Shown: piece by piece, positions 6,562 through 48,297 of the stretch
Numbering within the stretch: the first letter of the stretch is position 1
Layout: every line of letters begins with the position of its first letter
Origin: an uncultured Acidobacteriota bacterium
GTDB taxonomy: Bacteria; Acidobacteriota; Terriglobia; Terriglobales; Acidobacteriaceae
Assembly (NCBI GenBank): GCA_963759215.1
Contig: CAVWYG010000006.1
Span: 1,243,146-1,307,145 of the forward strand
Direction of reading: 5' to 3'
Length of the DNA: 64,000 nucleotides
The notes under the pieces: generated by a model
Told to the model about the DNA's origin: nothing
What the model saw: only the letters and a program-made list of their open reading frames with translations
The model's database searches: none
Program-made: the position numbers and the translations under genes

Positions 6562-6584
6562 AACAGCGTGGGCCTACGCATCCG

Positions 6585-6619
6585 CACATCTGCTAGAGGC
6601 AAAGGCGACAGATGTGGGG
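6585..6619. repeat. palindromic hairpin element CACATCTGC...CAGATGTGGGG (short member of the repeat family)
   Basis: Inverted repeat read directly; related copies at 9224-9254, 17970-18000 and 18720-18733. Confidence 0.6.
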
Positions 6620-6628
6620 CAGCGGCCG

Positions 6629-7870
6629 ATGAGACGCTGGGCGACGACGGCGCTGGTGATCCTGACGGCGCTGAACTTTGTGAATTACATCGACCGCTCG
6701 GTGCTGTTTGCCGTGCAGCCGCTGGTGCAGCACGAATTTCCGGGCTCGGATGCAAAGTTCGGGCTGCTGACCACGGCGTTCTTCTTCTGCTACATGCTGA
6801 CGGCTCCTCTGACCGGGTGGCTGGCGGACCGCCATTCGCGCCGCTTGATCATGTGCGTAGGGGCACTGATCTGGTCTGCGGCAACGCTGCTGACGGCGGT
6901 GACGCACAACTTCACCGAGCTGATGATTCGGCACACGCTGGTGGGAGTAGGCGAGGCGACGTTTGTTGCCATCGCACCATCGTTTCTCTCCGACCTGCAT
7001 CCGGAATACCGGCGGGGCAGAGTGCTGGCGGTTTTCTACCTGGCGATACCGGTGGGAACGGCCTTGGGATACTTGCTGGGTGGAGCGCTGGCGGAACGCT
7101 GGGGCTGGCGCGCACCGTTCCTGGTGGGCGCGGTGCCGGGGGCGCTACTGGGAGTGTTGTTGCTGCTGGTTCCTGAGCCTGAGCGCGGAGCGCAAGACCG
7201 GCTGGCGGTCACCTTAGAGCGAGGAACCTTCCTGGGACTGTGGCGCAATCCGGCGTTCTGGAGCGCGACGCTGGGGATGGCGATGATGACCTTTGCGGTG
7301 GGCGGGATGCAGGTGTGGATGCCGACATTTCTTACACGCATCCGGGGAGTTCCGCTGGCTACGGCGAATCTGCGCTTCGGATTGATGACGCTGGCGGCGG
7401 GGATTCTGGCGACCATGTTGGGAGGATGGCTGGGCGACCGGATGGAAGCAAGGAAACGTGGCGGACATTGCCTGATCTCCGCGATTGGAATGACGCTGGC
7501 ATTGCCCGCGGTGCTGCTGGCGGTGTTTCACGCGGGCTCGTGGATGTATCCGGCGATTTTTCTGGGCGAGTTTTTCCTGCTGCTGAATACGGCTCCGCTG
7601 AATGCGGCGATTCTGAATTCGGTTTCGGCGCCGATTCGCTCAACGGCCTTTGCGGTAAATATCTTCACTATTCATCTGCTGGGCGATGCGTTCTCGCCGA
7701 GCCTGATGGGCTATATCTCCGACCGGAGCAATATGCAGATGGCGTTTGTGGCGGCGTCGGCGGCGATTGCGCTTTCGGCGGGAGTGCTGTTTTTCGGAGT
7801 GCGATACGCCCCGCAGCTTCCACAGGGAGATTCAGCACAAGAAAATTCAGTGCAGGGAGATGAGGCGTGA
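6629..7870 (+). CDS. MFS transporter (Spinster-like)
   Basis: 12-TM MFS protein with an LADRHSRR-type motif. The ORF track starts at a GTG at 6614 inside the hairpin repeat; ATG at 6629 is more likely. Confidence 0.75.
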   Translation: MRRWATTALVILTALNFVNYIDRSVLFAVQPLVQHEFPGSDAKFGLLTTAFFFCYMLTAPLTGWLADRHSRRLIMCVGALIWSAATLLTAVTHNFTELMIRHTLVGVGEATFVAIAPSFLSDLHPEYRRGRVLAVFYLAIPVGTALGYLLGGALAERWGWRAPFLVGAVPGALLGVLLLLVPEPERGAQDRLAVTLERGTFLGLWRNPAFWSATLGMAMMTFAVGGMQVWMPTFLTRIRGVPLATANLRFGLMTLAAGILATMLGGWLGDRMEARKRGGHCLISAIGMTLALPAVLLAVFHAGSWMYPAIFLGEFFLLLNTAPLNAAILNSVSAPIRSTAFAVNIFTIHLLGDAFSPSLMGYISDRSNMQMAFVAASAAIALSAGVLFFGVRYAPQLPQGDSAQENSVQGDEA

Positions 7871-9036
7871 GCGCGTGGCATGCGCTGAACCTGCTGGCTG
7901 GAGCGTCGTTGGGTGCGACCTGGCTGTTTTACGCAGGAGCGGCGCGGCGAGGAATGAGGGGGATCGCCGACCTGACGCGGCCTGAATACGCGGTTGCGCC
8001 GGAGACGAAGTTGCCGCGAGTGAGCATCGTGGTTCCGGCACGCAATGAGGCCGGGATGATCGAAATCGCGGTGCGCTCGTTGCTCGCCATTGACTACCCG
8101 GACTACGAACTGGTGGTGGTGGACGATCGCTCGGAGGATGCGACGGGCGAGATTCTGGATCGGCTGAAGGCCGAGCATGGGGCGCGGCTGGGAGTGGTAC
8201 ACGTGCGCGAACTGCCGGCGGGCTGGCTGGGCAAGACTCATGCGATGTGGAGCGCGGCGGAAGCGGCGACCGGCGAGTGGATTCTGTTCAGCGACGGCGA
8301 CGTGCTACACGCGCCCACGGCTCTGCGGCGGGTGGTGCATTACGCCGAGCAGGAGCAGGCCGCGCATATGGCGCTGCTGCCGACGATGGTGATGGAGAGC
8401 GTGGGCGAACGTATGATGATTTCGTTCTTCCAGGCCATGTTCATCTTTGCGAACCGTCCGTGGAAGGTGCGCGACCCGAAGGCGCGGGATGCGATGGGCG
8501 TGGGCGCATTCAACATGGTGCGGCGTACGGCCTATGAAAAGATCGGCACATATCAATCTATGCGGCTGAGCGTGGTGGACGATATGCGCCTGGGAGAAAA
8601 AGTGAAGCAAGCGGGGCTGGCCTCACGGGTGGCCTTTGGCGATGGCATGGTCAATGTGCGCTGGGCGGTGGGGGCGCACGGCGTCGTCCGTAACCTCACG
8701 AAGAACTTCTTTGCCCATCTACGCTACAACCTTACGTTCGCGGTACTGGCGGTATTTGGGCTGCTTTGGCTGCATCTTGGACCGTGGATTGGAACGGTGT
8801 TTGCGACCGGGTGGGCGCGCGTTGGATATGCGGTTGCACTCGGCTGCCTGCTGACGGTGTACGCGGGAATGGGGAAGCGAACGAAGATCGGAGTGGGGTA
8901 CGTGTTGCTGCATCCAGCGGCGAGCGTGGTGATGGTGTTTACGCTGGTGCGCTCCACGGTGCTGACGCTGGCGCGCGGCGGCGTGGAGTGGCGCGGAACG
9001 TTCTATCCGTTGGCGGAGCTGAAGAGAAATCGGTAG
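7867..9036 (+). CDS. family 2 glycosyltransferase (membrane-anchored)
   Basis: PRVSIVVPARNEAGMI...YELVVVDDRSEDAT, a DxD-type GT2 catalytic domain followed by C-terminal TM helices. The start overlaps the MFS stop. Confidence 0.75.
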   Translation: MSAWHALNLLAGASLGATWLFYAGAARRGMRGIADLTRPEYAVAPETKLPRVSIVVPARNEAGMIEIAVRSLLAIDYPDYELVVVDDRSEDATGEILDRLKAEHGARLGVVHVRELPAGWLGKTHAMWSAAEAATGEWILFSDGDVLHAPTALRRVVHYAEQEQAAHMALLPTMVMESVGERMMISFFQAMFIFANRPWKVRDPKARDAMGVGAFNMVRRTAYEKIGTYQSMRLSVVDDMRLGEKVKQAGLASRVAFGDGMVNVRWAVGAHGVVRNLTKNFFAHLRYNLTFAVLAVFGLLWLHLGPWIGTVFATGWARVGYAVALGCLLTVYAGMGKRTKIGVGYVLLHPAASVVMVFTLVRSTVLTLARGGVEWRGTFYPLAELKRNR

Positions 9037-9150
9037 GAACCGGTGTAGCCCGACGCAGTACATCACCTCGAGTACTGATTAGAAAAATGATGGCGGGTTG
9101 AAAAGCTTGGGACCGCGCGGAGGATTTGAGCAGGGCTGGGATCTTTCGCT

Positions 9151-9307
9151 GCGCTCAAGATGACCAGCGTGGAGAAAATGCAAATTCAAGGGCAAAACCA
9201 GGAGCAAAGGCAAAGTCAACTACCCCACATCTGCTAACTACGGCAGATATGGGGCACCAGTTCTGCACCTGCGGTCATTTCGGTTTAACTAGTGCTCAAG
9301 ATGACTC
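9151..9307. mobile_element. MITE-like repeat element flanked by a 12-bp direct repeat GCTCAAGATGAC (9153-9164 and 9294-9305); contains the hairpin CCCCACATCTGC/GCAGATATGGGG at 9224-9254
   Basis: The internal sequence CAAGGGCAAAA...GGAGCAAAGG...TCAACTACCCCAC is shared with the copies at 12853-12965, 14346-14436 and 15078-15168. Confidence 0.5.
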
Positions 9308-9325
9308 TCTAAAAACACCAGCAAG

Positions 9326-9850
9326 CTACCAGGCGCGGGCGCGCTTGCTGGAGGACGAGGCCTTGCCTGTGGCGAAGGGCTTGGACTGAACAGCGTCAAA
9401 CTCCGGTGGCGGATCGCCGGCGGCGACGCGAATCTGCTCTCGGTCCTTTACGAGGATTACGGGATGGCCGCCGCGAGACTCGGTGACATCTCCCATGACG
9501 GCGATGACCTTGCCGCGCAGATAGGAGAGGTCGCCAACATTGCCGCGACTACGTTTGGAGATTACCGCCTGAAATGAGCATTTATTGTTGGGGCAGAGCG
9601 AGAGATGGGTGTTGCCGCTTTTGCGGACGGTGACACGAAAGACCTTTCCCGCAACGCATCCGTGATTGCCGATCAACACCGAGGCGTGCGAAGCGGGAGT
9701 GCACTCCACTTGGAGCCCGCGCAACTGGGAGTCGGCTTTTTGCGCCGATTGTGCCGGGGGTTGCGCGGTGGTAGTGGGAGTGGCGCTCTGCTGGGCGAGG
9801 GCTGGTGTGATGAGCAGCAGAGCGACGCACATAAGCCAGCGTAAGTTCAC
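9326..9850 (-). CDS. secreted hypothetical protein (signal peptide, several Cys)
   Basis: MNLRWLMCVALLLITPALAQ signal peptide. GTG start overlaps the stop of the upstream CMD gene (GTGA overlap). Confidence 0.55.
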   Translation of the reverse strand: MNLRWLMCVALLLITPALAQQSATPTTTAQPPAQSAQKADSQLRGLQVECTPASHASVLIGNHGCVAGKVFRVTVRKSGNTHLSLCPNNKCSFQAVISKRSRGNVGDLSYLRGKVIAVMGDVTESRGGHPVILVKDREQIRVAAGDPPPEFDAVQSKPFATGKASSSSKRARAW

Positions 9851-10374
9851 TTGGTGGGTTCCATTTTGAGCGAATTGTTGAAACGGTTGAAGTAGTTGAA
9901 CAGGCCGATGGCGGCGGCAAGCTCAATGATTTCGCCTTCATCAAAATGCTGGCGCAGTTTGGCCCAGAATTCGTCGTCGATGCCGGTGGAGTCGAGGGTT
10001 TCGCGCTCGGCGAGTTCGAGGGCGGCTTTTTCACGCGGGTTGAAGTCAGAGCGGGTGCGGAAGTTCGCGAGATCGGCAAGCTGTTCCTCGCTCCATCCGT
10101 AGCGGTGCGCGAGCTGGGTGTGGGAGTTGAGGCAGTAGTCGCATTGATTGATTTGCGAGGTGCGAACGATGACGAGTTCCTTGAGTTTGACGCCGATGGT
10201 ACCGGTCTCCATGACGGCGCGGAAGTGCGCGATCATAGTGCGGAGAATCTCCGGGCGGTAGGCGACGGTGCGAAACATATTGGGCACGTTGCCGCGCTCT
10301 TTTTTGTAGTGGTCGAAAATTTCCTTGGCGGACGAGTCGGCCGCTTCGTAGGCGATGGCAGGGATGCGTGGCAT
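9847..10374 (-). CDS. carboxymuconolactone decarboxylase / AhpD-like family protein
   Basis: Conserved CDYCLNSH (AhpD-type CxxC...H) motif; likely start MPRIPAIAYEAAD. Confidence 0.75.
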   Translation of the reverse strand: MPRIPAIAYEAADSSAKEIFDHYKKERGNVPNMFRTVAYRPEILRTMIAHFRAVMETGTIGVKLKELVIVRTSQINQCDYCLNSHTQLAHRYGWSEEQLADLANFRTRSDFNPREKAALELAERETLDSTGIDDEFWAKLRQHFDEGEIIELAAAIGLFNYFNRFNNSLKMEPTK

Positions 10375-10485
10375 GGGAGTATTGTGCGTCCGGTTGGGCG
10401 GCGTGTCCAGTGGGTTGCGCAAGTAAACGGGCGGCCTTGGGAGCCGCCCGTGGTTGGATTGAATGGCCCAGGTTATTAGCTCAGG

Positions 10486-10834
10486 TTACGACTCGAAGGC
10501 GCCGATGGCCGAAGTTTCGTCATCCTGAATGTCAAACACTTTGTACAGCTTTGTAATCTGCAGCAGATCGTGGACCTTCTTGGTAACGTTGATCAGCTTG
10601 AGCTCGCCACCTGCGCCACGAATACTGGTGAAGGCCTTGACCAGTTCGCCGACCCCGGAAGCTATCAACGTAGCTGATGTTGCCGAGATTGAGGACAATT
10701 TTGTTTTGGCCTTGAGCGGAAAGATCCTTCACGGTATCGCGCAGCACGACGCTGCCCTCGCCGAGTGTAATACGCCCGCTGAGATCGACGATAGTGACAC
10801 CCTCTACCTGACGCGAGCTAGCTTTCATCGTCAC
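10486..10834 (-). CDS. STAS-domain anti-sigma-factor antagonist (SpoIIAA-like), one frameshift near 10670
   Basis: N-terminal part MTMKASSRQVEGVTIVDLSGRITLGEG...NLGNISYVDS and C-terminal part GVGELVKAFTSIRGAGGELKLINVTKKVHDLLQITKL lie in adjacent frames. Confidence 0.6.
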
Positions 10835-11300
10835 TGGTTGTCCTCCTTACTGCTGCCGCGGCCCGGACCGCGAACGGATTTAATCATAATGATTTCTGTG
10901 CCCGGAGACATGGTTCGAAAATGAATTTCGTCCATAAATGCCCTGATCAGAAAAATTCCGCGTCCTGATTCCTTGAGCAGGTTTTCCGGGGCAAGAGGGT
11001 CTGGGAGCGTAAATGGGTTCAGCCCTGGTCCTTGGTCGCGCACGGCCACCGTCAGGGCGTCGGGAGTGATATCGAAGGAGACAGTCACGCGCTTGGCTGG
11101 ATCGTAGCGGTTCCCATGCAGGACCGCGTTGAGGGTGGCTTCACGGACGGCCATGGCGATACGGCCACATTCGTCCGGCGTCAAAACCGGCTCTGGCGGC
11201 GACCTCGGCGGCGGACTGCTCGGCCTTGTTCACACTCGCCAGAGTGGACTCGAGGGTGTAGGAAACCCTGGTTGCATTCATCGCGTACGCTTCATCCATC
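10831..11300 (-). CDS. anti-sigma regulatory factor (RsbW/SpoIIAB-like Ser kinase, HATPase_c), one frameshift near 11180
   Basis: N-terminus MDEAYAMNATRVSYTLESTLASVNKAEQ (frame A) continues as ECGRIAMAVREATLNAVLHGN...VRDQGPG (frame B). Confidence 0.6.
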
Positions 11301-11309
11301 GTGGTAAAT

Positions 11310-11954
11310 TTACCAGTTCAAGCGGATCGAGTCGCCCACAATTATTACCTCTAAGGCGTCCAGGTTCGGCAGCAACGCGGTTGCGTGAACCAGTTCGTCT
11401 ACGGGATAGGTGGTGGGAACGGCGAGAACAGGCATTGCCGCATCCGATGCGGAACGGATGCCACTGGGTGCATCTTCGACGGCCACGCAGTCGGCAGGAG
11501 CAAGGCCAAGCAGAGCGGCTCCACGCTGGTAAGGCTCGGGATGCGGCTTGCCGTGCTCGATGTCGGTGCCGGTAATCATGAGCTCCGGAATGGGAAGGCC
11601 GGCGACGCGGAGGCGGTGGGAGGCCAGATCGCGGGTTCCGCTGGTGACGATGGCCCAGCGGCGTGGAGGCAGGGAGGCGAGCAGGCGGGCGGCTCCGGGG
11701 AAGACGATGACGTCGTGGGATTCAGCGATTTCGCGGCGCTCTAGGTCGCGCAGCTCGGCTTCGGCATCGAGTTCGGGCGCGAGCAGGCGAACTGTGTCGA
11801 TGGCGCGGCGTCCGTGGGCGGTGTGGGCGGTCTGGGCGGGATCGAGTCCGTTGCGCAGGCCCCAGTCGCGCCAGACACGAGTGACTCCGGCGGTGCTGTC
11901 GATGAGCACGCCGTCAAGATCGAAGAGAATGCCTTGCACGAGCAGAGATGGCAT
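11310..11954 (-). CDS. HAD-superfamily hydrolase, subfamily IA
   Basis: DxDGVLIDS motif I (ILFDLDGVLIDS), motif III K, motif IV VEDAPSG. Confidence 0.8.
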   Translation of the reverse strand: MPSLLVQGILFDLDGVLIDSTAGVTRVWRDWGLRNGLDPAQTAHTAHGRRAIDTVRLLAPELDAEAELRDLERREIAESHDVIVFPGAARLLASLPPRRWAIVTSGTRDLASHRLRVAGLPIPELMITGTDIEHGKPHPEPYQRGAALLGLAPADCVAVEDAPSGIRSASDAAMPVLAVPTTYPVDELVHATALLPNLDALEVIIVGDSIRLNW

Positions 11955-12039
11955 GGATCGAGTGTAAAAGAATTCGGGTGAGTTCATGCGAATTGCTTAG
12001 GGCGCATGGGATCGAAACATCCTATGATGGGCACGAGAG

Positions 12040-12867
12040 ATGATGAATATGGGTATGCGAGTTGCGCTGCGGGTTGTGCTGATGGTCGTACTGGTGATGT
12101 CGCTTGCGGCGGTTTGCGTGCCGTGCTTTGCGGCGGAGAAGCTGATTGCGTTGACCTTTGACGATGGGCCGCGGCCTTACGTGCTTTATGGAGTGAAACA
12201 GCCGGGCGCGGCGGCCAGCGCGAACCCAGGAATGCTCGACGTGCTGGACCGTAATGGGGTGAAGGCGACATTTTTCTACATGGGCTGGAGGTTGACGCCG
12301 AAGACCTGGGGCGAGACTCCGCATGAGACCAACATTGGGGTGAGCTGCCTGGATGCGGCGCACGACGTTCTGCGGCGCGGGCACGAGATTGAGAACCACA
12401 CCTACAGCCATGCCGACCTGCGCATCGCCGAGCGCAAGAAGGGCGAAGGTTGGGTGCTGGGGGACGTGGAGCGCGGAGCCGAGGCGGTGAAGGCTGTGAC
12501 AGGGACGAAGCCGCTATGGCTGCGTCCGCCGGACTGGGACCTGACGGACGATGCGCGTCACGATCTGGAGGCTCACGGCTTCCGCATCCTGACCATCTCA
12601 AGCCAGAACCCGGTGGCGCTGCGCGATGTGAATTCGCAGGACTACCTGTGCGTGGGCAAGGGCGTGGGCTGCCCGAAGCCGTCGCTCTCGCAGAGCGTCG
12701 TGAAAGCCATTGAGCAGCGCGAGAAGAAAGGGGTGTACACGCACGTGCTGGCCTTCCACGAACTGACGACCACAACTGCGCAACTGCCGGAGCTGATTGC
12801 GACGCTCAAGGCGAAAGGGTATCGCTTTGTGACCGTGACGGAGTATATGAAGATTGTCAGGAATTGA
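12040..12867 (+). CDS. polysaccharide deacetylase (CE4/NodB homology), secreted
   Basis: LTFDDGP motif, signal peptide, HTYSH; the last five codons (KIVRN*) overlap the repeat element. Confidence 0.8.
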   Translation: MMNMGMRVALRVVLMVVLVMSLAAVCVPCFAAEKLIALTFDDGPRPYVLYGVKQPGAAASANPGMLDVLDRNGVKATFFYMGWRLTPKTWGETPHETNIGVSCLDAAHDVLRRGHEIENHTYSHADLRIAERKKGEGWVLGDVERGAEAVKAVTGTKPLWLRPPDWDLTDDARHDLEAHGFRILTISSQNPVALRDVNSQDYLCVGKGVGCPKPSLSQSVVKAIEQREKKGVYTHVLAFHELTTTTAQLPELIATLKAKGYRFVTVTEYMKIVRN

Positions 12868-12965
12868 CAGGGTAGGAGCAACAACAAAGAAACAACAAGG
12901 GCAAAATCAACTACCAGTCAACTACCCCACGTTAGCCAAAGACAGGCTAACATGGGCCACCCGCC
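12853..12965. mobile_element. composite repeat copy 1: TGTCAGGAATTGACA palindrome (12856-12870) + spacer + hairpin CCCCACGTTAGCC/GGCTAACATGGGC (12925-12957)
   Basis: Direct comparison with the copies at 14346-14436 and 15078-15168 and with the relative at 9151-9307. Confidence 0.65.
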
Positions 12966-12985
12966 GAGTTCTCGGAGTGTACCTC

Positions 12986-13744
12986 ATGACGTTAGATGCC
13001 GAGCATATCAGTCAGAATAATGTTCCAAACGGCGAGAGGAAACCCGATATACAGGCCAATGACTCCGCACCAAATGTCTCGCTGACATCTGGCGCGTCTA
13101 GCTGTCCACCACCCCAAACACATTGCGAGATTACCTGCAGGACAGAGAATGATTGGTGGAATAAGATTAAGCCGTTTGTGGAGATTGCTGGCGTAGTGCT
13201 GTTGTTTGTTTACACCGTTTACACAATTAAAATGTATTGCGCCAACAAAGAGGCCGCAGATGCTGCCACTAGCGCCGCCATCTCTGCCGGAGAAAGCGTG
13301 ACGCAAGCAAGAGATAACGCCCGTCTGGATCAAAGAGCGTGGGTTTCCGTTAGTGATATTTCCGCACAATCTAAGCAGGATAACAATTGGACTGTAAGCA
13401 TTGTCATTAAAAACACTGGCAAGTCTCCTGCTAAGAATTTTGTCATTCGCGGGATTGGGGAACCTGTCGCAAAAGGCAAAAAACCTAACGAGGAAGAGGT
13501 TGTTCTCCCCGGACGAGGCATGATCGCCCCGGACGGAGTTTTCCATTCCAATTTGAACTCTTTTGGTCGGTTTGACTGGCAATCTGTAGACTTCGTTATT
13601 CACGGACGAATTGAGTATGCCAGCGTTTTCGGGGCTGGTCACTGGACTACGTTTTGTTATCATTTTATTCCCGATAGTAAAACCGGAAAAGGCGGGTTTG
13701 CTCCTTGCGAGTTCGGAAATGACATAGATAATAACCTGCCTTAG
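12986..13744 (+). CDS. hypothetical single-pass membrane protein (low-GC island)
   Basis: ORF with an RBS; TM helix VEIAGVVLLFVYTVYTI; protein-like composition; local GC ~45% against a ~60% background. The ORF-track start at 12854 lies in the repeat; ATG at 12986 is preferred. Confidence 0.5.
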   Translation: MTLDAEHISQNNVPNGERKPDIQANDSAPNVSLTSGASSCPPPQTHCEITCRTENDWWNKIKPFVEIAGVVLLFVYTVYTIKMYCANKEAADAATSAAISAGESVTQARDNARLDQRAWVSVSDISAQSKQDNNWTVSIVIKNTGKSPAKNFVIRGIGEPVAKGKKPNEEEVVLPGRGMIAPDGVFHSNLNSFGRFDWQSVDFVIHGRIEYASVFGAGHWTTFCYHFIPDSKTGKGGFAPCEFGNDIDNNLP

Positions 13745-13763
13745 CTTAGATACTGGGGAAGAT

Positions 13764-14312
13764 ATGTCAAAACTGTCTGTGGCGATATTCGGTTTCATAC
13801 TAGGGGTGTCCTGCACACTCCTGTTCAGCCCGCGCATGCAGATCGTTGCAGCATCTACCGCCGCCCCGCAATTACTCAATCGTGGATCAAACCGCAGTGT
13901 ATTTGTAGGAGGAGGGATATCCGGAGCCACGACTGGCGTCTTCATCGAAGGTGCCGTTCCTCGTTTTATACCTCTTGATAACACTCCAATTTTTAAAGAT
14001 TTCACTATTTCCGGCGCAAAGGAACAATCCCTAGATGGTCTTGACTGTCGCAACTGTACATTTAACGATGCACTCCTGACATACAGCGGCGGGGCATACA
14101 ACTTGGACAATGCACAATTTTCAGGGACAACAAAAATCGTACTTGGCGGCGCTGCCGCAAATACAGTGGCATTTCTCAAGTTTTTGGATGGGATCGGGAG
14201 GGGCATCCCAACCAAGTCTCTTGCTCCGAATAAGCCCGTACAGAGAAAAGCTATAGCTAAACAACCTCTACCCAAAATGAACTTTACGGCACCGTATATC
14301 GGCTCAAAGTGA
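13764..14312 (+). CDS. hypothetical membrane-anchored/secreted protein (low-GC island)
   Basis: RBS GGGGAAG; N-terminal TM/signal MSKLSVAIFGFILGVSCTLLFS, then a hydrophilic Gly/Thr-rich domain. Confidence 0.5.
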   Translation: MSKLSVAIFGFILGVSCTLLFSPRMQIVAASTAAPQLLNRGSNRSVFVGGGISGATTGVFIEGAVPRFIPLDNTPIFKDFTISGAKEQSLDGLDCRNCTFNDALLTYSGGAYNLDNAQFSGTTKIVLGGAAANTVAFLKFLDGIGRGIPTKSLAPNKPVQRKAIAKQPLPKMNFTAPYIGSK

Positions 14313-14345
14313 AATTGCCGCAACATGTGCGTCAACCTTTTGTCG

Positions 14346-14436
14346 CCGTTGTAAGGAATTGACAGCGCTAGGAATGGCAGGAGCAAGGTCAACTACCCCA
14401 CGTTCGCAAAGACAGGCTACACTACAGCCGCCCGCC
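14346..14436. mobile_element. composite repeat copy 2 (TGTAAGGAATTGACA at 14350-14364 + degenerate hairpin)
   Basis: Sequence identity to copies 1 and 3. Confidence 0.6.
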
Positions 14437-14439
14437 TAG

Positions 14440-15030
14440 CTATGTGATTCCTTTCCTTGTTGCGCTGGCAGCTTCCGTGATCCGGAACGAAACCGCTGTC
14501 GCACAGAAGTCGCATTCTGCTGTGTGCACGCCGTCAGGGAGCGGGGCCGGGACTGGGAAGGTTCTCAAACAGGAAGAACATGTCACTGCAATGTAGTCCG
14601 CATCGCCTTTGACCGGAATCCAGACGGCTGCTTTGGGCTGACGGGCGACGCTCGGGCGTTGAGGGATCTCTTCAAGCAGGGCAGTGATCTTCTGGAAGAG
14701 GTTTTCTGGGGAATACTGGCCTTTTTCAAAGAATGCGTCCGCTAAAACGCTCTCGGGCACATCTATCCCGGAAAACTCGCCGCTGATCGCGATGACGGCT
14801 ATCCGGGGAAAGCGCTTGCGCACTACAGACAGGAATTCAAATCCGCTCATGTTGGGCATGCGTAAATCTGAGATAACAACATCGGGCAGGGATTGCTTCA
14901 ACTTTGTGAGGCCATCAAATCCGTCAATGGCACACAGCACTTCATAGCCTTGTGATTCGAGAATTGTTCTGGCCACGGTGCGGATGTTCTTCTCGTCGTC
15001 AACCACAAGAATCCTATAGCGAAAACTCAT
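14440..15030 (-). CDS. response regulator: REC domain with a C-terminal Cys4 zinc-ribbon-like domain
   Basis: ILVVDDE...D55 (VISDLRMPNMSGFEFL)...K; C-terminal CSSC...CDFC; ATG at 15030 with a GAGGAA RBS. Confidence 0.75.
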   Translation of the reverse strand: MSFRYRILVVDDEKNIRTVARTILESQGYEVLCAIDGFDGLTKLKQSLPDVVISDLRMPNMSGFEFLSVVRKRFPRIAVIAISGEFSGIDVPESVLADAFFEKGQYSPENLFQKITALLEEIPQRPSVARQPKAAVWIPVKGDADYIAVTCSSCLRTFPVPAPLPDGVHTAECDFCATAVSFRITEAASATRKGIT

Positions 15031-15077
15031 GTTCCTCAATTCCGCAATTGGGAATTTGATGCCACAGTTGTACGGAA

Positions 15078-15168
15078 ACGTTGTCAGGAATTGACATGAG
15101 TCAACTACCCCACCAAAGACGGGCTAACATGGGCCACCCGCCGGGCTAACATAGCCACCTGCGGGCTT
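15078..15168. mobile_element. composite repeat copy 3 (TGTCAGGAATTGACA at 15083-15097 + partial hairpin + extra GGGCTAACAT duplication)
   Basis: Sequence identity to copies 1 and 2. Confidence 0.6.
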
Positions 15169-15293
15169 TTCCTTCGTCTGCTTTCGCAATCCGCTTTTGC
15201 CGGCGACATCACTGACTTGACGAAGCTTTTCGAGTATTTTGATTTTCTCGGAAAACGGGAGCGAGGCTAGTTTCTTCCGTCTTTGCTTCTCCA
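15123..15293 (-). CDS. small basic protein (57 aa, MEKQRRKKLASLPFSEKIKILEKL...), translationally coupled to the upstream nucleotidyltransferase
   Basis: ATG lies 2 nt after the NTase stop and is preceded by GAGGAG; the C-terminal 15 codons are encoded by repeat copy 3. Not in the ORF track (<60 aa). Confidence 0.35.
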
Positions 15294-15296
15294 TCA

Positions 15297-15812
15297 CTAC
15301 TCCTCAAGGTACTTGCTTTCGAACTTCTTCCATTTGGGGACCAGCCCGTGCCGTAACAGGATGGAGTCGAGCTTCTTCCTGTTGACTGCATCTTGTTCGA
15401 GGAACATTGCAATCCGAGCATAATCCTTGGCTCGTCCAGTCTGCAAAGCGATGGCGACCAGATGCTCGGCACTCAACACGGATGTCGGAATGCCATCAAA
15501 TTCGGTCTTCACCGCTTCGGCCAATGCCTCCTGCTCCAGTGCTCCTCGAAGCGGCAGAAATTGTACAGGCCAGCCACCGATTACGATGCGTTCGCCGTCG
15601 ACTTGGCACCCCTGCGCTGTCAGATATTCGTAGATGGGCGAAAGGCTCAAGAGTGAGCTTCCAGGGGCAGTGGGCAGCGTAATAAAGATATCAAGGTCCG
15701 CAGTGTAGAACGTCTCCAGATAGAAAATCGCCCCTATGGCTCCGCCGATGGCGTAGTTGCCGATTACGCCATCGACCTGCATTCGGTTAATCATCTCCAA
15801 CGTCGCTTTCAT
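15297..15812 (-). CDS. nucleotidyltransferase-fold protein (Pol-beta superfamily), uncharacterised
   Basis: GGAIGAIFY...DLDIFI matches the hG[GS]...[DE]h[DE]h NTase motif; 171 aa. Confidence 0.5.
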   Translation of the reverse strand: MKATLEMINRMQVDGVIGNYAIGGAIGAIFYLETFYTADLDIFITLPTAPGSSLLSLSPIYEYLTAQGCQVDGERIVIGGWPVQFLPLRGALEQEALAEAVKTEFDGIPTSVLSAEHLVAIALQTGRAKDYARIAMFLEQDAVNRKKLDSILLRHGLVPKWKKFESKYLEE

Positions 15813-15828
15813 TGGATGCCTTCCTGAA

Positions 15829-18592
15829 CTACTCCACCTGCTTTTTCAACTCATACAACAAATTCATCGCCTCGCGGGGGCTGAGGGAGTCGAGGTCGGC
15901 TTCGCGGAGGCGGTCGAGGACGGTGTTGGAGACCGGGGTGAAGATCGTCAACTGCACCGGGCCGGATTTTTCTGGCTTGGGAGCAAGCTGGGTGGTGGCG
16001 GCGTGTTCGGCGTTCTCGTGCTGGTGCAAGACCTCGCGGGCGCGGGAGATGACTTCGGCGGGGAGGCCGGCGAGTTTGGCGACTTCGATGCCGTAGCTTT
16101 TGTCGGCGGCGCCGGGTGAGACCTTGCGTAGGAAGACGATGCTGCCGGCGGTTTCCTTGACGCTGACGTGATAGTTCTTGACCGAATCGAGCAGCGTTTC
16201 GAGCTCGGTGAGTTCGTGGTAGTGGGTGGCGAAGAGCGTCTTGGCGCGGCTGTGCTGGTGGATGAATTCGACCACGGCCCAGGCGATGGCGAGGCCGTCG
16301 TAGGTGGCGGTGCCGCGGCCGATTTCGTCGAGCAGGATGAGCGAGCGCGAGGTTGCGGTGTTGAGGATGGCGGCGGTTTCCGTCATTTCAACCATGAAGG
16401 TAGAGCGGCCGCGCGCGAGGTTGTCCGAGGCTCCGATGCGGGTGAAGATGCGATCGACTGTGGAGAGGCGGGCGCGGGTGGCGGGGACGAACGAGCCCAT
16501 CTGCGCCATCAGTACGATGAGCGCGGTCTGGCGCAGGTAGGTGGACTTGCCGCCCATGTTGGGGCCGGTGATGAGCAGGATCGACTGGCTGGAGGCGTCG
16601 AGATAAAGATCGTTGGGGACGAAGCGGTCGTTGGAGCCGGTGAGCTCGGGCTGCTCAATGACGGGGTGGCGGCCTTCGAGGATTTCGAGAAGTTGGGCGT
16701 TGTTGTTAGATTGCGGGTCGTTCATCTGCGGGCCGTGAAGCTGGTCTTCAAAGTTCGGGCGGCAGTAGTTGCGCAGCGCGGCAAGATGCGCGAAGGAGAG
16801 CAGAACATCGATCTCGGCCAAGGCCAGCGCGCTCTGGCGAATGCGGCGCGATTCGGCGGCGATACTCATGCGCAGCTCGGCGAAGAGGCGGCGCTCGATT
16901 TCGACGATCTTCTCTTCGGCATCGAGAACCTTGGTTTCGTATTCCTTTAGCTCCGGCGTGGTGTAGCGCTCGGCGCCGACCAGGGTCTGCTTGCGCTCGT
17001 AGTCGGCGGGGGCATGTTGCAGGTTGGCCTTGCTGATCTCAATGTAAAAGCCGAAGACGTTGTTGAACTTGACCTTGAGCGAGTTGATGCCGGTGCGCTC
17101 GCGCTCGCGTTGCTCGATTTGGGCGATGTAGTGTTTGCCGTTGCGGCTGATGTCGCGGAGTTCGTCGAGCTGCGGATCGAGTCCGTTCTGGATGACTCCG
17201 CCATCGTTGAGAGTGATGGGCGGCTCGGGGAGGATGCTGCGCTCGATGCGCTCGCGTACGTCGGCGAGTTCGTCGAGCAGATCCACGAGTGCGGTGAAGC
17301 GCGCGGCAGGGAAGTTGGCCAGCGCGCGCCGCACGGCGGGGAGCCGGGCGAGCGACGCGGCGAGGGCGAGAATGTCGCGTGGGTTCGCGGTTTCAAGGGT
17401 GATGCGGCTGAGCAGGCGCTCGATGTCAAGAATGCCGTCGAGTCGAGCGGCGCAGCTCTTCGCGATGAATGATGCTGGCGAGGGCGGCGGAGACGGCATC
17501 GAGGCGTTGGTTGATTTCGGCGACATCGATGGAGGGGCGCAGCATCCAGGCACGCAGGAGGCGCTTGCCCATCGGGGTGAGGGTGTGGTCAAGGGCGCGG
17601 AAGAGAGTTACGGCGTCTCCGGAGCCGGCAAAGAGGGGCTCGATCAACTCGAGGTTGCGGACGGTGACGGCGTCAAGGATAAGGCAGTTCTGGCGCTCGT
17701 AGTAACCGATGCGGTCCACATGGCCGAGTGAACCACGCTGAGTCTGGCGGACGTAGTGGAGGATGGCTCCCGCGGCGCAGGCAGCGGCGTTGTGGTTGGC
17801 GAGGCCGAAGCCCTCCAGCGATAAGACGCCGAAATGATTTTCAACCAGAGGGACGGCGTAGTCGGTGGCGAAGATCCAGTCGTCGAGCGGAGTCTCGCTC
17901 CAACGCGCGAAGGGCGCAAGGTCGGTGGAGGCCAGGCGCGGCGTGGGCGTGTTTGGCGCACCCGCTTTACCCACATCTGCTAAATGCGGCAGATGTGGGG
18001 CACCCGGGGCGGATTGGAAGAGGGGCAGCGATGCGGCGTAGAGGAGCTCGCGTGGGCGCAGGGTTTGGAGCTCGTCGGCGACGCGGCGGTCGGCGTCGGG
18101 GCCGATGAATTCGGTGGCACGGAATTCGCCGGTGGAGAGATCGAGGGCGGCGAAGCCGAGGGTGCAGCCACCGTTGAGACCCGAACCGCTGCCGTGGCGA
18201 GCGACGGCGCAGAGGAAATTGTTCTCCTCGGAGCCGAGCTGCGAGTCGGCGGCGGTGCCGGGAGTGACGACTCGGGTGACTTCGCGGCGCACCAGTTTCT
18301 TGGTGAGCTTGGGGTCCTCGACCTGGTCGCAGATGGCGACCTTGTAGCCTTTGCGAATGAGCTTGGCGATGTAGCCTTCGGCGGCGTGGTAGGGAACTCC
18401 GCACATGGGGAGGGCTACGCCATCGACCTTCTGACGCGAGGTGAGGGTGATCTGAAGCTCGCGCGAGGCGGTGACGGCGTCGTCGAGGAAGAGCTCGTAA
18501 AAGTCGCCCACGCGGAAGAACAGCAGCGCGGTGGGATGCTCTTTTTTGATTGCGGCGTGCTGCCGCATCAGCGGGGTTGAGGCTTCACTCAT
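15829..18592 (-). CDS. mutS: DNA mismatch repair protein MutS, interrupted by a +1 frameshift near 17445 (tcgActcgac)
   Basis: N-terminal 388-aa ORF (mismatch-binding, connector and lever domains) and C-terminal 587-aa ORF (Walker [13 protein letters not shown]). The junction ...LREELRR | [11 protein letters not shown] reconstructs if one nucleotide is removed. Confidence 0.85.
17970..18000. repeat. hairpin repeat CCCACATCTGC-N8-GCAGATGTGGGG inserted in-frame within mutS (encodes [11 protein letters not shown])
   Basis: Same palindrome as at 6585 and 9224; the mutS alignment shows ~20 extra residues here relative to E. coli MutS. Confidence 0.6.
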
Positions 18593-18783
18593 GGGGAAAA
18601 TTTGGGGGTCTCAAAGGGCCGAGTATAGCAGAGCCGGGCTGGTTTGAGAGGATTCGAGCGACGGCGCACGGGCGTGAAAGGGACGGACCTTGGCCCGTTT
18701 CCGCACAACTCTTAGCGCTGCATCTGCTAGAGCATAAATCCCGGAGTTGCGCAGCGGCATCTTGGGATTCTGAGAGGGACCAC

Positions 18784-20007
18784 GTGCGCATCCCGATTTT
18801 GAAGAAACTGAGTCTGCTTCTGCTCGGTGGGTCTGTAGCGTCATTGGCACTGTTACCCGCCTGCGGCAGTGGTCGGCCCACTACTGCGAGCACACAATCC
18901 AACACGTTTGTTTATGTCACCAGCCTTGTTGAAAGTGTCGGCCCGAGTGGCACCTTTTACTCTGGTTCGGGTGGCATCTCCGAATTCCAAATGGCTTCGA
19001 CCGGCACGCTGACAAAAGTGGCTGGCTCGCCCGTATCGTTCAACTCAAATATGCCGACGACGCTTGCGGCAGACCCGCTGGGCCGGTTCCTGTTCGCCGC
19101 GAGCGCGAACAGCATATTCACCTTCAGCATTGCGCCGAGCACCGGCGCACTCACGCAGGTGGCAAGCTCCAGTCTTCCTCCTGCCGGGAGCACACAATTT
19201 GCGGGCGGCCCGATGGCCGTGGATCACGCGGGTAACTTTCTGTATGCGCTGACCCTGAATGGACTGAACGTTTATTCCATTGGGGCCAGCGGTGCTCTCA
19301 CCATTGTGCAGACGATCGTGACGGCGGTGGATCTGATCAGTGGCGGGATCGCACTGGATAGCGCTGGGAAGTTTCTCTACGTGGTTACCACCGGGAACAC
19401 CGCTGGCATCGGCGTAGCCAGTCCGACGGTGTTCGCGGTCGATTCCAAATCGGGGATGGTGACAAAGGTCAGCTCGTTTCCGGTCTATCAGTTTGGCACG
19501 GGAGGGCTAGCAGTGAATCCGAATGGGAGCTTTGTTTACGTCCTGACCGCGCATCCCGTGACCAACCTGGTTTTCGCGAACAACAATGGAACCGTGACGC
19601 AGGTGCAAGACACGGGGTGCGGCTGCGATCTGGACCTTGAAGGCGGATTTGTCCTGGTGCACCCCTCAGGTAAGTTCCTCTATGAAACGGTCAGCAATGA
19701 AGTCATCGGAATGAGCATTGGCGCCGATGGCACGCTGGGTGCGGCGATATCGCCATTCTCGGGCTTTCTTTTGACGCCAACCCCTGGAGTGAAAGTCGCC
19801 ATTGGGCTCGATCCGGGCGGCAACTTTCTATTCGCATCGCAGAGCTTGCTCACCGGCCCGAACTCCACACTTAGGACTCCGGTGGTTACGGAGTTTGCGG
19901 TGGATTCAACCACGGGTAACCTGAAGCAGTCACCCGGCTCGCCGTTTACGCTCGATGTGGCATCCAGTGATCCGTTCGCGACGGTTGCAGTGAGTGTTCC
20001 CCGGTAG
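18784..20007 (+). CDS. beta-propeller lactonase-family lipoprotein
   Basis: GTG start giving VRIPILKKLSLLLLGGSVASLALLPAC (lipobox LPAC), then repeated GxFLY/SxxGxxL blades (NFLYALT, KFLYVVT, SFVYVLT, KFLYETV). Confidence 0.75.
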   Translation: MRIPILKKLSLLLLGGSVASLALLPACGSGRPTTASTQSNTFVYVTSLVESVGPSGTFYSGSGGISEFQMASTGTLTKVAGSPVSFNSNMPTTLAADPLGRFLFAASANSIFTFSIAPSTGALTQVASSSLPPAGSTQFAGGPMAVDHAGNFLYALTLNGLNVYSIGASGALTIVQTIVTAVDLISGGIALDSAGKFLYVVTTGNTAGIGVASPTVFAVDSKSGMVTKVSSFPVYQFGTGGLAVNPNGSFVYVLTAHPVTNLVFANNNGTVTQVQDTGCGCDLDLEGGFVLVHPSGKFLYETVSNEVIGMSIGADGTLGAAISPFSGFLLTPTPGVKVAIGLDPGGNFLFASQSLLTGPNSTLRTPVVTEFAVDSTTGNLKQSPGSPFTLDVASSDPFATVAVSVPR

Positions 20008-20071
20008 CAGCGGCTGGCTCGGCAAACAATTCGTATTTGACTCAGAAGCCCGGGAGTGGTTTGCTATCGCA

Positions 20072-32050: not shown

Positions 32051-32791
32051 ATGAGTCTTAAGTTTCGCGCTGATATAATTCGTCGCGTGAGCTTCGAGCC
32101 TACTGACCTGGCGATTGTCCTTAAAAACACACGTTTGTTATCCGGCCTTTCTCAACCTGAAGTGCGATTGCTAGCACAACGCACTGTGCGAAAGTTGTTC
32201 AGCACGGGAGAACTATTGTTTTCCGAGGGCGAACCCTGCCATGAGCTAAACATTGTCTCCCGAGGAAAGGTACGCATCTTTAAAACTTCTGTCAGTGGAC
32301 GGGAACAGGTCCTCGCTGTCGAACATCCGGGCGATACGGTCACCGAGATTCCCGTCTTTGACGGTGGCCCGTATCCCGTTTCTGCTGTCGCCATCGCAAA
32401 CACGGAAATTGCCTTCATCTCGCGGCACGATTTTCAGGCATATTGCATGGAGCATCCGGAGGTGGCGCTCAAAGTGCTTGCTGTTGTGGGTAAGAGACTC
32501 CGGCGCCTCGTTGAAATTATCGAGGAATTGTCGTTCACCACAATTCGCCAACGGCTCGTCTCAACGCTTGTGCGTGTAGCACAGTCTGAGGGAAAACAAA
32601 CGGCTCGGGGATTGGAATTTCTATTACCGGCCAGTCACCCAGAGCTGGCAAACCAACTCGGGACGGTTCGCGAGTTAATTTCTCGCAATCTCAAGCGGCT
32701 TCAGGCTGAAGGATTGCTGGAAGTGGATTCGCGGCGGATCGTGGTGAAAGATATGAAAGGTCTAGCGGAAATTCTCGACATCGCAGCGTAG
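32051..32791 (+). CDS. Crp/Fnr family transcriptional regulator, HcpR-like candidate (paralog 1)
   Basis: cNMP-binding beta-roll; C-terminal HTH with recognition helix TVRELISRNL (R-E-x3-R, as in CRP). Confidence 0.8.
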   Translation: MSLKFRADIIRRVSFEPTDLAIVLKNTRLLSGLSQPEVRLLAQRTVRKLFSTGELLFSEGEPCHELNIVSRGKVRIFKTSVSGREQVLAVEHPGDTVTEIPVFDGGPYPVSAVAIANTEIAFISRHDFQAYCMEHPEVALKVLAVVGKRLRRLVEIIEELSFTTIRQRLVSTLVRVAQSEGKQTARGLEFLLPASHPELANQLGTVRELISRNLKRLQAEGLLEVDSRRIVVKDMKGLAEILDIAA

Positions 32792-45839: not shown

Positions 45840-46548
45840 ATGCGATTGAACACGAAGCGTGTTGATCTGGCGGAAGTTCTTCAGAAGACAGCCCTGTTTT
45901 CCAGTCTTTCTCAACCCGAGTTGCAGTTGCTGGCCACCAAAACGGTCAGGAAGCTGTTCGGTGCGGGGGAAGCTCTGTTCCACGAAGGCGATCCCTGCAA
46001 GGGATTGCACATCATCTCGCGAGGACAGGTGAGGATTTTCAAGCCATCGGCCAGCGGACGCGAGCAGGTTCTGGCCGTGAACGTTGCCGGCGAATCGGTT
46101 GCCGAACTTCCGGTCTTTGATGACGGCCCGTATCCGGCCTCCGGAATGGCGATCGAGGAAACCGAGATTGCGTTTATCTCGCGTAAGGACTCCGTGATTA
46201 TTGTCTGGCTCGCCCGGAAGTCGCACTCAAGGTTCTGGCTTTTGTCGGCGCCAGGCTGCGCAGGCTGGTCGGCATAATTGAGGAGCTGTCCTTTACGACC
46301 ACGCGTCAGCGCCTTGTCTCCCTCTGGTTCGTCTGGCGCAAAGCGACGGACGGAAAACCGAGAAGGGTATTGAGGTCCTGCTGCCCGGTACCAACCAGGA
46401 GCTCGCAAATCAACTGGGAACGGTGCGCGAAGTGATTTCGCGTAACCTCATGCGGCTGCAGGCTGAGGGATTGCTGGAAGTGGATGCCCGGCAGATCGTG
46501 ATCAAAGACGTGAAGGGACTGGCCGCGCTGCTGGAGGCGGTGCAATAA
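45840..46548 (+). CDS. Crp/Fnr family transcriptional regulator, paralog 2; two frameshifts (~46200 and ~46340)
   Basis: N-terminal 120 aa closely parallels crp1. Continuation ...RPEVALKVLAFVGARLRRLVGIIEELSFTT and ...KTEKGIEVLLPGTNQELANQLGTVREVISRNLMRLQAEGLLEVD is found in the other two frames. Confidence 0.65.
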
Positions 46549-48052: not shown

Positions 48053-48297
48053 CCTGCCCACGATTCACTCCTGAATCGTGGGCAGAATTAAGGGGTAACA
48101 CAAGGACGCTAATGCCGAAGGCGCTATCACTGGTGGGTTCAATCTTCGGATCGCGCAATTGAGACGACAAATCCGCCTGCTCGAAGGCATGTACTCGCGC
48201 GAGGGTGTAGATCAATCTTCTGACTTCAGCAGGAACGCGGCCGTTGAGAGTGACTAAGGTCATAGCAAGACGCCTGATGGAAGAGCAGGATTGCATC

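Follow-up and report, generated by a model that had tools for sequence, protein, structure and literature searches.

The described repeats that come closest to those considered here are the repetitive extragenic palindromes (REPs) of E. coli, Pseudomonas and Stenotrophomonas. These are short, high-copy imperfect palindromes, mostly intergenic and enriched at convergent gene ends, which occur in mosaics with other conserved motifs (bacterial interspersed mosaic elements, BIMEs). The gene for their REP-associated tyrosine transposase (RAYT), a Y1 enzyme of the HUH type, lies between inverted REPs in an arrangement known as the REPtron. To our knowledge almost all work on REP/RAYT systems concerns Proteobacteria, and we know of no established mechanism by which RAYTs spread REPs. 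In this study we analysed a stretch of 64,000 nt (the window) from an uncultured bacterium of the Acidobacteriaceae (Acidobacteriota, Terriglobia; contig CAVWYG010000006.1, positions 1,243,146 to 1,307,145), in which a first, sequence-only reading had noticed a family of intergenic hairpin repeats and likened them to miniature inverted-repeat transposable elements (MITEs). The features just listed for REPs recur in this family, and we consider it highly probable that it is a non-autonomous, REP/BIME-like mosaic repeat of Terriglobia which is mobilised in trans by a RAYT and is not a classical MITE.

Y1 genes with flanking inverted repeats, termed TIRYT or TIRtron genes, have been described in four Acidobacteria (T. 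saanensis, K. versatilis, A. capsulatum and G. mallensis), one K. versatilis set being repeated (Di Nocera et al. 2013, PMC3733652), and class 3 TnpA-Y1 proteins with other hairpins in Solibacter (Quentin et al. 2018, PMC6006769), as far as the accessible text of these papers goes. Their GGGGWSAS motif or CnGA foot does not fit GGGGCACC or CCCAC, a separation that is made by description only, and the accessible portions of the two papers describe no tag, mosaic, hexamer runs or strand polarity. The hairpin sequence was not found in the accessible supplements of Di Nocera et al., and the relation to their 'TIR' repeats is likewise judged by description. In the papers searched, the core sequence was found only as chance primer matches. 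The family is thus known in kind, as a REP/RAYT system, while the family itself and its peculiarities are apparently undescribed.

A dispersed hairpin family of Terriglobia

The 13-mer TCAACTACCCCAC has exactly four exact matches in the window, all on the + strand (starts 9216, 12918, 14389 and 15101), and each is followed by a hairpin or a hairpin remnant. With up to two mismatches there are six matches against 0.63 expected, a number reached in none of 100 shuffles. The claim that the family is dispersed and has more copies elsewhere was borne out when one genome per species was scanned with the pattern TCAACTACCCCAC-N12-30-TGGGSCAC. At least 111 stretches were found, nearly all in Acidobacteriota/Terriglobia metagenome-assembled genomes (MAGs) of the Acidobacteriaceae or Korobacteraceae and often ten or more per MAG, and the few matches in unrelated taxa are in line with the roughly ten chance matches estimated for the pattern. 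A 14-mer scan of viral contigs gave only single chance matches among the matches listed. Like REPs, the copies are many, dispersed and mostly extragenic: by gene calls that are crude and derived from codon usage, 109 of 124 copies are intergenic, in convergent (32), tandem (31 and 18) and divergent (9) contexts, and the small number of divergent contexts indicates that promoter regions are avoided.

Copies aligned with their flanks have in common, across many Terriglobia genomes, the core TCAACTAC-CCCAC-stem-loop-stem-(A/G)TGGG(G/C)CACC, and their consensus order is an optional module 1, a T-poor hexamer run, TCAACTAC (the tag), the hairpin and (A/G)TGGG(G/C)CACC(C)G. Module 1 extends over about 85 nt, contains ..AATCGATTGCTGGTTGAAAAGCCTTGGGACGGCGCTGGAGATTTGAGCGGCGCTGGGGTCCTTCGC.. 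and terminates in GGGGTCCTTCGCT(T/G)CGCTCAGGATGACAC; its conserved end, GCTCA[G/A]GATGAC, was found in at least 39 copies of other genomes, and its small stem of 4-5 bp has compensatory variants (TCCT/AGGA, ATTCC/GGAAT, TCGT/ACGA and TTCT/AGAA). Upstream of the tag and in register with it, CAA recurs every 6 nt (at -5 and at -11 in 60 of 119 copies each, at -17 in 33 and at -23 in 30). The order of module 1, hexamer run and tagged REP is recurrent, which gives the family the mosaic character of BIMEs, and in three loci (L195, L131 and L165) the unit is arrayed as a whole (REP, linker, module 1, hexamers, REP) with a period of about 165 nt. A tag-independent hairpin finder returned some 210 orientable hairpins from 0.95 Mb of biased sequence, 97 of them with other 5' flanks, so that the hairpin is the basic unit and the tagged form its commonest class. 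We would describe the unit as an imperfect palindrome of about 30 nt with the foot CCCAC...(A/G)TGGG, usually with a C.A mismatch beside the foot, and with the 3' flank (G/C)CACC, which falls within the 20-40 nt of hairpin-forming REPs. In its commonest class it carries the 5' tag and is set in the mosaic of module 1, an (NNNCAA)n run phased with the tag, and the tagged REP.

The hairpin is conserved as a structure. In an alignment of 120 copies, in which the columns fixed by the search pattern are uninformative and seven inner stem pairs, unconstrained by it, are formed in nearly all sequences, a helix of 12 pairs is 95.8% paired with 240 double changes (1,416 pair cells), and one stem pair takes all four Watson-Crick types (C-G 39, A-U 29, U-A 29 and G-C 16). 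The covariation score and the number of double-change cells were matched by none of 500 shuffles, the pair-count and type-count measures by 13 and 24 of them, and in slid controls pairing was down to 27-51%. Stems fall into discrete subfamilies across genomes (CCTAGCC, TCAAGCC, ATCTGCC, GTTAGCC, TTCTGCC, ACAAGCC and others), and there are nearly no G.U pairs among the 1,416 cells. Covariation nearly without G.U, together with discrete subfamilies, is what a palindrome copied at the DNA level would give, and is not the pattern of an RNA helix that evolves where it stands. Roughly three quarters of the hairpins have a C.A mismatch beside the foot on the tag-bearing strand, and the two strands can therefore be told apart.

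A structured RNA (a stabiliser in the 3' untranslated region, a terminator or a small RNA), acting on neighbouring genes through a hairpin in the transcript, would also be expected to have covarying stems. Copies favour gene 3' ends, with a weak preference in orientation (the hairpin side is towards a gene 3' end in 69 of 99), and RNA of the minus strand folds better than shuffles (z -3.7 and -3.2, against -2.5 and -2.3 for the plus strand), because the C.A mismatch turns into G.U there. We regard this as unlikely to be the primary function, given the near absence of G.U pairs, the flanking genes that see both orientations of the element, the lack of a U-tract 3' of the hairpin and the copies that lie in frame within MutS and QueA coding sequence. 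No Rfam family matched the window or seven array-bearing loci at gathering or permissive thresholds. A secondary role in the termination or stabilisation of transcripts is possible.

RAYT genes and strand polarity

When the fetched loci were searched for the HUH and Y motifs, three open reading frames (ORFs) were found (in L226, L196 and L161), and a fourth, frameshifted, was detected by tblastn (L139); all four adjoin tagged REPs. The ORFs match Pfam Y1_Tnp, and the L226 protein, the one scanned in NCBIfam, matches NF047646 ('REP-associated tyrosine transposase') with 102 bits against a cut-off of 80. The best PDB match, over the full length, is E. coli TnpA-REP (4ER8, E 9e-11). In L226, L196 and L161 a '-' REP lies 45-95 nt upstream of the RAYT ATG, and the RAYT stop is overlapped or adjoined by a '+' REP that follows the tag or a near variant, (T)CAACT(A/G)CCCC.

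A metagenome scan with three aligned RAYT proteins gave 560 relatives, 80 loci of which were kept, and REPs around them were counted with the covariance model R1. Within 170 nt upstream of the gene the expected '-' REP was present in 50 of 73 testable loci (opposite '+', 8), within 130 nt downstream the expected '+' REP in 46 of 72 (opposite '-', 2), and 34 of 65 testable loci had the expected orientations on both sides. These are under-counts for more distant RAYTs, whose hairpins have a CCCCG foot. A strict regular expression had under-counted the RAYT-side REPs (15/39 and 21/38) and was replaced by the covariance-model matches. In these other genomes, then, the RAYT gene is flanked by inverted REPs as in the REPtron. 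The elements themselves are non-coding and would most likely be cut and copied in trans by the RAYT, which may act on the lagging-strand template by recognising the hairpin there in single-stranded form.

The orientation of the repeats is in keeping with such a process. The strand that bears the tag is the G-rich one in 88 of 92 loci and, with 400 nt around every element masked, for 193 of 206 REPs (binomial p ~3e-42); the median flank skew is +0.14, and skew is uncorrelated with gene strand (r -0.10). An RNA function is further weakened by this, as orientation tracks GC skew (94%) and not the strand of the genes. In the window GC skew is strongly and persistently positive (+0.2 to +0.3) at 8000-12500 and 15800-18500, irrespective of gene strand, which made the test of polarity possible, and the window as a whole obeys the rule (skew +0.077, all five copies +). 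In sequence the G-rich strand corresponds to the lagging-strand template. According to the accessible text of Quentin et al. (PMC6006769), the Y1 transposases of IS200/IS605 excise from and insert into that template. Orientation following GC skew fits single-strand transposition on the lagging-strand template and, if the preference of Y1 enzymes holds here, 5'-TCAACTAC-CCCAC..-3' would be the active strand.

Copies in the window and their turnover

The covariance model, which had been trained on 120 relatives, was run on the window with filters off and gave five copies, all on the + strand, two of them strong and three decayed, with no further copy in 19-64 kb (Table 1). The initial observation of dispersed hairpin repeats is upheld by this; the palindrome, the target-site duplication and some of the relatives that had been described along with it are not.

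Table 1. Copies of the repeat in the window and their component parts
Feature	Position	Strand	Evidence or remark
Copy A	9204-9265	+	Strong; covariance model, 68 bits
Copy A, module 1, ~85 nt (GGTTGAAAAGC...GGAGGATTTGAGC...GGGATCTTTCGCTGCGCTCAAGATGAC) with small hairpin ATCTT/AAGAT	9081..9164	+	Aligns with at least 39 copies of other Terriglobia genomes
Copy A, T-poor (NNNCAA) run in tag register: ATGCAA ATTCAA GGGCAA AACCAG GAGCAA AGGCAA AG-TCAA	9165..9215	+	
Copy A, tagged REP: tag TCAACTAC, 3' flank CACC	9216..9258	+	Covariance model, folds, covariation
Copy A, second, partial unit: module-1 end GCTCAAGATGAC and degenerate A-rich run	9294..9325	+	
Copy B	12906-12968	+	Strong; covariance model, 65 bits
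Copy B, 'left palindrome': TTGTCAGG (native deacetylase codons) and AATTGACA (insert start)	12854..12869	+	Comparison with L232 ortholog
Copy B, hexamer run with stuttered partial tag ATCAACTACCAG at 12906-12917	12870..12917	+	
Copy B, tagged REP, GTTAGCC/GGCTAAC subfamily, intact	12918..12961	+	Covariance model, fold
Copy C	14377-14439	+	Decayed hairpin; covariance model, 20 bits
Copy C, co-duplicated 16-mer TTGTAAGGAATTGACA, short run, tag at 14389, decayed 3' arm	14349..14439	+	
Copy D	15089-15145	+	Decayed, 5' arm deleted; covariance model, 39 bits
Copy D, co-duplicated 16-mer, tag at 15101, REP without 5' arm, partial 3'-arm duplicate (15146-15168)	15081..15168	+	
Copy E	17968-18011	+	Decayed, inside mutS; covariance model, 27 bits
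Copy E, untagged REP CCCAC-ATCTGC..GCAGAT-GTGGGGCACC	17968..18011	+	In frame in mutS (- strand)
Copy F (probable), CCGCAC-ATCTG...CAGAT-GTGGGGCAGC, between queF-like gene and MFS gene	6582..6621	+	7 bits, E 3.6

Copy A (9081-9258) is a complete mosaic and is located between convergent genes. Its hairpin (9223-9254) reads CCCCAC-ATCTGC-loop-GCAGAT-ATGGGG with one C.A mismatch, and the 3' side with its flank is ATGGGGCACC. A 12-bp direct repeat, GCTCAAGATGAC at 9153 and 9294, had been taken for a target-site duplication. The repeat is genuine, but it is the conserved end of module 1 described above: the first 12-mer falls within module 1 of copy A (9153-9164) and the second within the partial unit, which borders the stop of the (-) ORF 9326-9850. 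This bears on the comparison with a classical MITE, which arises from a DDE transposon by deletion, has terminal inverted repeats and is flanked by a target-site duplication. Short, non-coding, dispersed elements in a window without a transposase, and a direct repeat around part of copy A, would suit such an origin, which we nevertheless hold to be extremely improbable. The supposed duplication is a motif internal to module 1 that recurs in unrelated copies, filled and empty sites show no clean target-site duplication, and there are no conserved terminal inverted repeats, the sole end-to-end inverted pair of copy A being 14 nt at 79% and no matching inverted-repeat motif recurring in the 3' flanks of the listed copies. 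The associated enzyme, moreover, is an HUH Y1 transposase, which leaves no target-site duplication.

Comparison between relatives was one of the checks proposed at the outset, and presence or absence of copies proved to be polymorphic. A syntenic locus in a related MAG (L232; ~80% nucleotide identity in genes), reached via a MutS fragment, has the gene order of the window (queF-like, MFS, GT2, hypothetical, CMD, STAS, HATPase, HAD, deacetylase, response regulator, mutS) and is without copies A, B, C, D and F. The spacer between the GT2 and hypothetical genes, the site of copy A, is ~290 nt in the window and ~45 nt in L232, and that between the response regulator gene and mutS is 793 nt and 104 nt, respectively. 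Other syntenic pairs provide more filled and empty sites. At 92% identity the same site is occupied by different stem subfamilies, and pairs of close relatives gave such replacement of one subfamily by another at the same site, and no clean indels.

The relationship of copies B, C and D became clear from the deacetylase gene, which ends aag ctc gtc cgg tag (EYMKLVR-stop) in L232 and EYMKIVRN-stop in the window. It follows that TTGTCAGG represents the gene's own I-V-R codons and that the insert, beginning with AATTGACA, supplies Asn and the stop codon, as had been supposed from the window alone. Since C and D bear the same 16 nt, they are copies of B's junction, host flank included. The inverted repeat TTGTCAGGAATTGACA, which had been ascribed to all four long copies, is present in three of them (at 12854; at 14349 with one mismatch; and at 15081) and not in the copy at 9151. 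As a feature of the family, the palindrome with its TTGACA hexamer does not hold either: TTGTCAGGAATTGACA is in none of the first 231 loci fetched (111 family loci of the genome scan and 120 chance-match viral loci). The 5-5-5 palindrome is a locally co-duplicated junction and partly native coding sequence, its first 8 nt belonging to the last codons of the deacetylase. A reading of TTGACA as a -35 promoter element was rejected, as the hexamer lies in this local junction and its spacing to -10-like sequence is variable.

The hairpin of copy B is CCCAC-GTTAGCC-loop-GGCTAAC-ATGGGCCACC, and copy D is 97% identical to it across 31 nt. B, C and D probably derive from one local ancestor, duplicated along with 16 nt of flank, and now bracket low-GC accessory ORFs. 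The stretch 12970-15800 has a GC content of 46-55% against 60-68% around it and contains the ORFs 12986-13744(+), 13764-14312(+) and 15297-15812(-), for which neither Pfam nor NCBIfam gave a match and which L232 lacks; B, C and D bracket them. The response regulator gene had been considered as part of this island, and synteny with L232 shows it to be native. A copy had also been said to provide the annotated start of an MFS transporter; the ORF perhaps meant, 12992-14392(-), is without a Pfam or NCBIfam match, and the genuine MFS gene of the window is at 6614-7870(+). Look-ups of the exact proteins of the deacetylase, the response regulator and P0001 found no record.

It could be argued that a low-GC island simply left B, C and D behind as direct repeats when it recombined or integrated (in an att-like or Campbell-type manner), and that the family as a whole is not mobile. 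Their private 16-nt flank, their single hairpin subfamily and the absence of the bracketed ORFs from L232 would agree with this, as would a second case, in L142 (3512-5506), where two direct copies of the element, 115 nt long, 94% identical and 1,880 nt apart, lie around three ORFs. One of these has, by eye, an Rhs/YD-type toxin C-terminus (..YDPTIGRFISEDP..), another is a small membrane ORF and the third a 105-aa ORF, and together they look like an orphan toxin-immunity cassette bracketed by the repeat. Local duplication does explain what B, C and D share; it accounts for three copies here and not for the nature of an element known from more than a hundred unrelated sites across dozens of genomes, and copies A, E and F have nothing to do with the island. 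As a full explanation we find it very unlikely. An integron attC site or cassette array was also considered and rejected: AGTCAAC misfits RYYYAAC, the 3' flank (A/G)TGGG(G/C)CACC is without GTTRRRY, and most copies are solitary and intergenic.

Three shorter hairpin relatives had also been proposed. The one at 17970-18000 is real and corresponds to copy E, which encodes 17 residues in a linker of MutS domain II that is hypervariable. Copy E is missing from the closest homolog (85% identity), others have different hairpin-encoded peptides, and L232 carries a different REP in the opposite orientation at this point. In homologs P0010, P0014 and P0017 the same linker (alignment columns 230-290) contains repeat-like peptides, e.g. 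APSFRHLSPKGWEEGS and LGKGWEQSH, which suggests that a second repeat family may also land there. The relative at 6585-6619 is marginal to the covariance model; inspection by eye shows a stem of 8 bp and a 3' flank like that of the family, and it is probably a decayed REP relative (copy F). That at 18720-18733 was not found by the model. In-frame insertion is not confined to mutS. The queA gene of L201 contains three tandem in-frame units (2599-2927), each of 24 nt of queA, hexamers or (xQ)n and a hairpin-encoded REP peptide, which add ~110 residues without a stop, and the relative L192 (2375-2391) has none. The persistence of palindromic repeats in frame within coding genes is reminiscent of the Rickettsia palindromic elements. 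These are longer and unrelated in sequence, we know of no dedicated transposase for them, and the resemblance is one of outcome only.

Departures from known REP systems

Although the family can be placed with REPs in kind, it departs from the textbook examples in four ways. The head 5'-GT[AG]G, which canonical REPs have ahead of the palindrome, is missing in that polarity: an invariant CTAC abuts the foot, GTAG follows on the other strand, and the 5' flank of the complementary strand is GGTG[C/G], with GTGG only in a minority GGGCCACC class. Clusters run head to tail, 36 of 37 pairs of neighbouring REPs within 400 nt having the same orientation, unlike the alternating REPs of E. coli BIMEs. 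The orientation is about 94% polarised with GC skew, and phased (NNNCAA)n runs precede the tag. The host, Terriglobia, is also different. It is unusual for such repeats to form same-orientation arrays and tag-phased runs, to be duplicated along with host flanks and to lie in frame within MutS and QueA. REPINs (Bertels and Rainey 2011, PMC3116915) are likewise non-autonomous, are thought to be mobilised by a single-copy RAYT and form sequence populations with subfamilies, but they consist of two inverted REPs that make one long hairpin, whereas the pairs found here are direct. With IS200/IS605 and its gene-less derivatives (PATEs) the family has in common a hairpin-dependent single-strand DNA chemistry and an orientation bias for the lagging-strand template. 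In those elements the end hairpins are on the same strand and the transposase gene is internal, whereas the Terriglobia RAYT gene lies between inverted hairpins and most copies are solitary or tandem.

Several of these points weigh against mobilisation by a RAYT as we propose it, namely the polarity of the GTAG/CTAC head and the uniform orientation of neighbouring copies, which is that of neither REPINs nor E. coli BIMEs. The window itself, as had been reported, contains no transposase: tblastn with a RAYT found none in its 64 kb. The search for a cognate enzyme thus succeeded in other genomes, where RAYT genes are bracketed by the hairpins, and not in the window, and because the scan for this organism covered the window alone, a cognate enzyme in it has to be assumed. 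The ends of an insertion are not definable to the base, and transposition of the family stands as a prediction. The reading also does not account for where module 1 and the hexamer runs come from, and copies B, C and D could have spread by recombination instead of by a transposase.

The family might even be a distinct, strand-polarised class of RAYT substrate and not one more REP family, a reading which we regard as rather doubtful. In such a class the lagging-strand template (TCAACTAC-CCCAC with the C.A mismatch) would be active, hexamer runs and stuttered tags would be scars of slippage, or of cleavage and rejoining repeated at TCAA, and 16-24 nt of host flank would be copied along with the element, as may have happened with B, C and D of the window and with the triple insert in queA of L201. 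TCAA is the right-end cleavage site of IS608. At 12906-12930 the tag is stuttered (TCAACTACC-AG-TCAACTACCCCAC), and for this reason we would guess that the hexamer runs arose by slippage, or by repeated cleavage and rejoining at TCAA. Tandem arrays would be built up by an element of this kind, accessory gene cassettes would come to lie between its copies, and proteins such as MutS and QueA would acquire in-frame inserts that are Q-rich or hairpin-encoded.

A REP family with a fixed single-strand tag, near-absolute GC-skew polarity and head-to-tail arrays could be a cleaner system for locating the active strand and the cleavage site. The repeats are also of practical concern in the annotation of Terriglobia MAGs. 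They change gene ends, flag hot spots of gene gain and may mislead gene callers and assemblers, and in translation they turn up as spurious ORFs or as extensions of ORFs, for instance as PHLP..VG.. or LEWATR-type peptides and as Q-rich runs. Annotators could mask them with a covariance model of the REP unit.

Some further observations concern the surroundings of the copies. The mutS gene of the window, 15829-18592(-), is in two overlapping ORFs, 17426-18592 (domains I-III) and 15829-17592 (domains III-V), indicating a frameshift near 17426-17592. The same 388-aa MutS call is present in a public protein collection and many homolog calls from MAGs are likewise truncated, and an assembly (long-read) error seems likelier than a pseudogene. 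Between the hypothetical and response regulator genes of L232 there is a 78-nt copy of the mutS 3' end (13542-13619), with 83% identity to 15833-15910 of the window, which is a further sign of a rearrangement-prone interval. A 485-aa lactonase-type beta-propeller ORF (18550-20007, interval 18635-20054) is found in the window where the syntenic position of L232 has only ~100 nt. At 48057-48082 a perfect small palindrome, CCCAC-GATTCA-loop-TGAATC-GTGGG, has the family foot without the family flanks or loop; the hairpin finder picked it up on both strands and the covariance model did not, and it is probably unrelated to the REP family. Finally, a 200-nt direct repeat (32567-32766 and 46324-46523; 70% identity, 13.8 kb apart) probably reflects paralogous genes.

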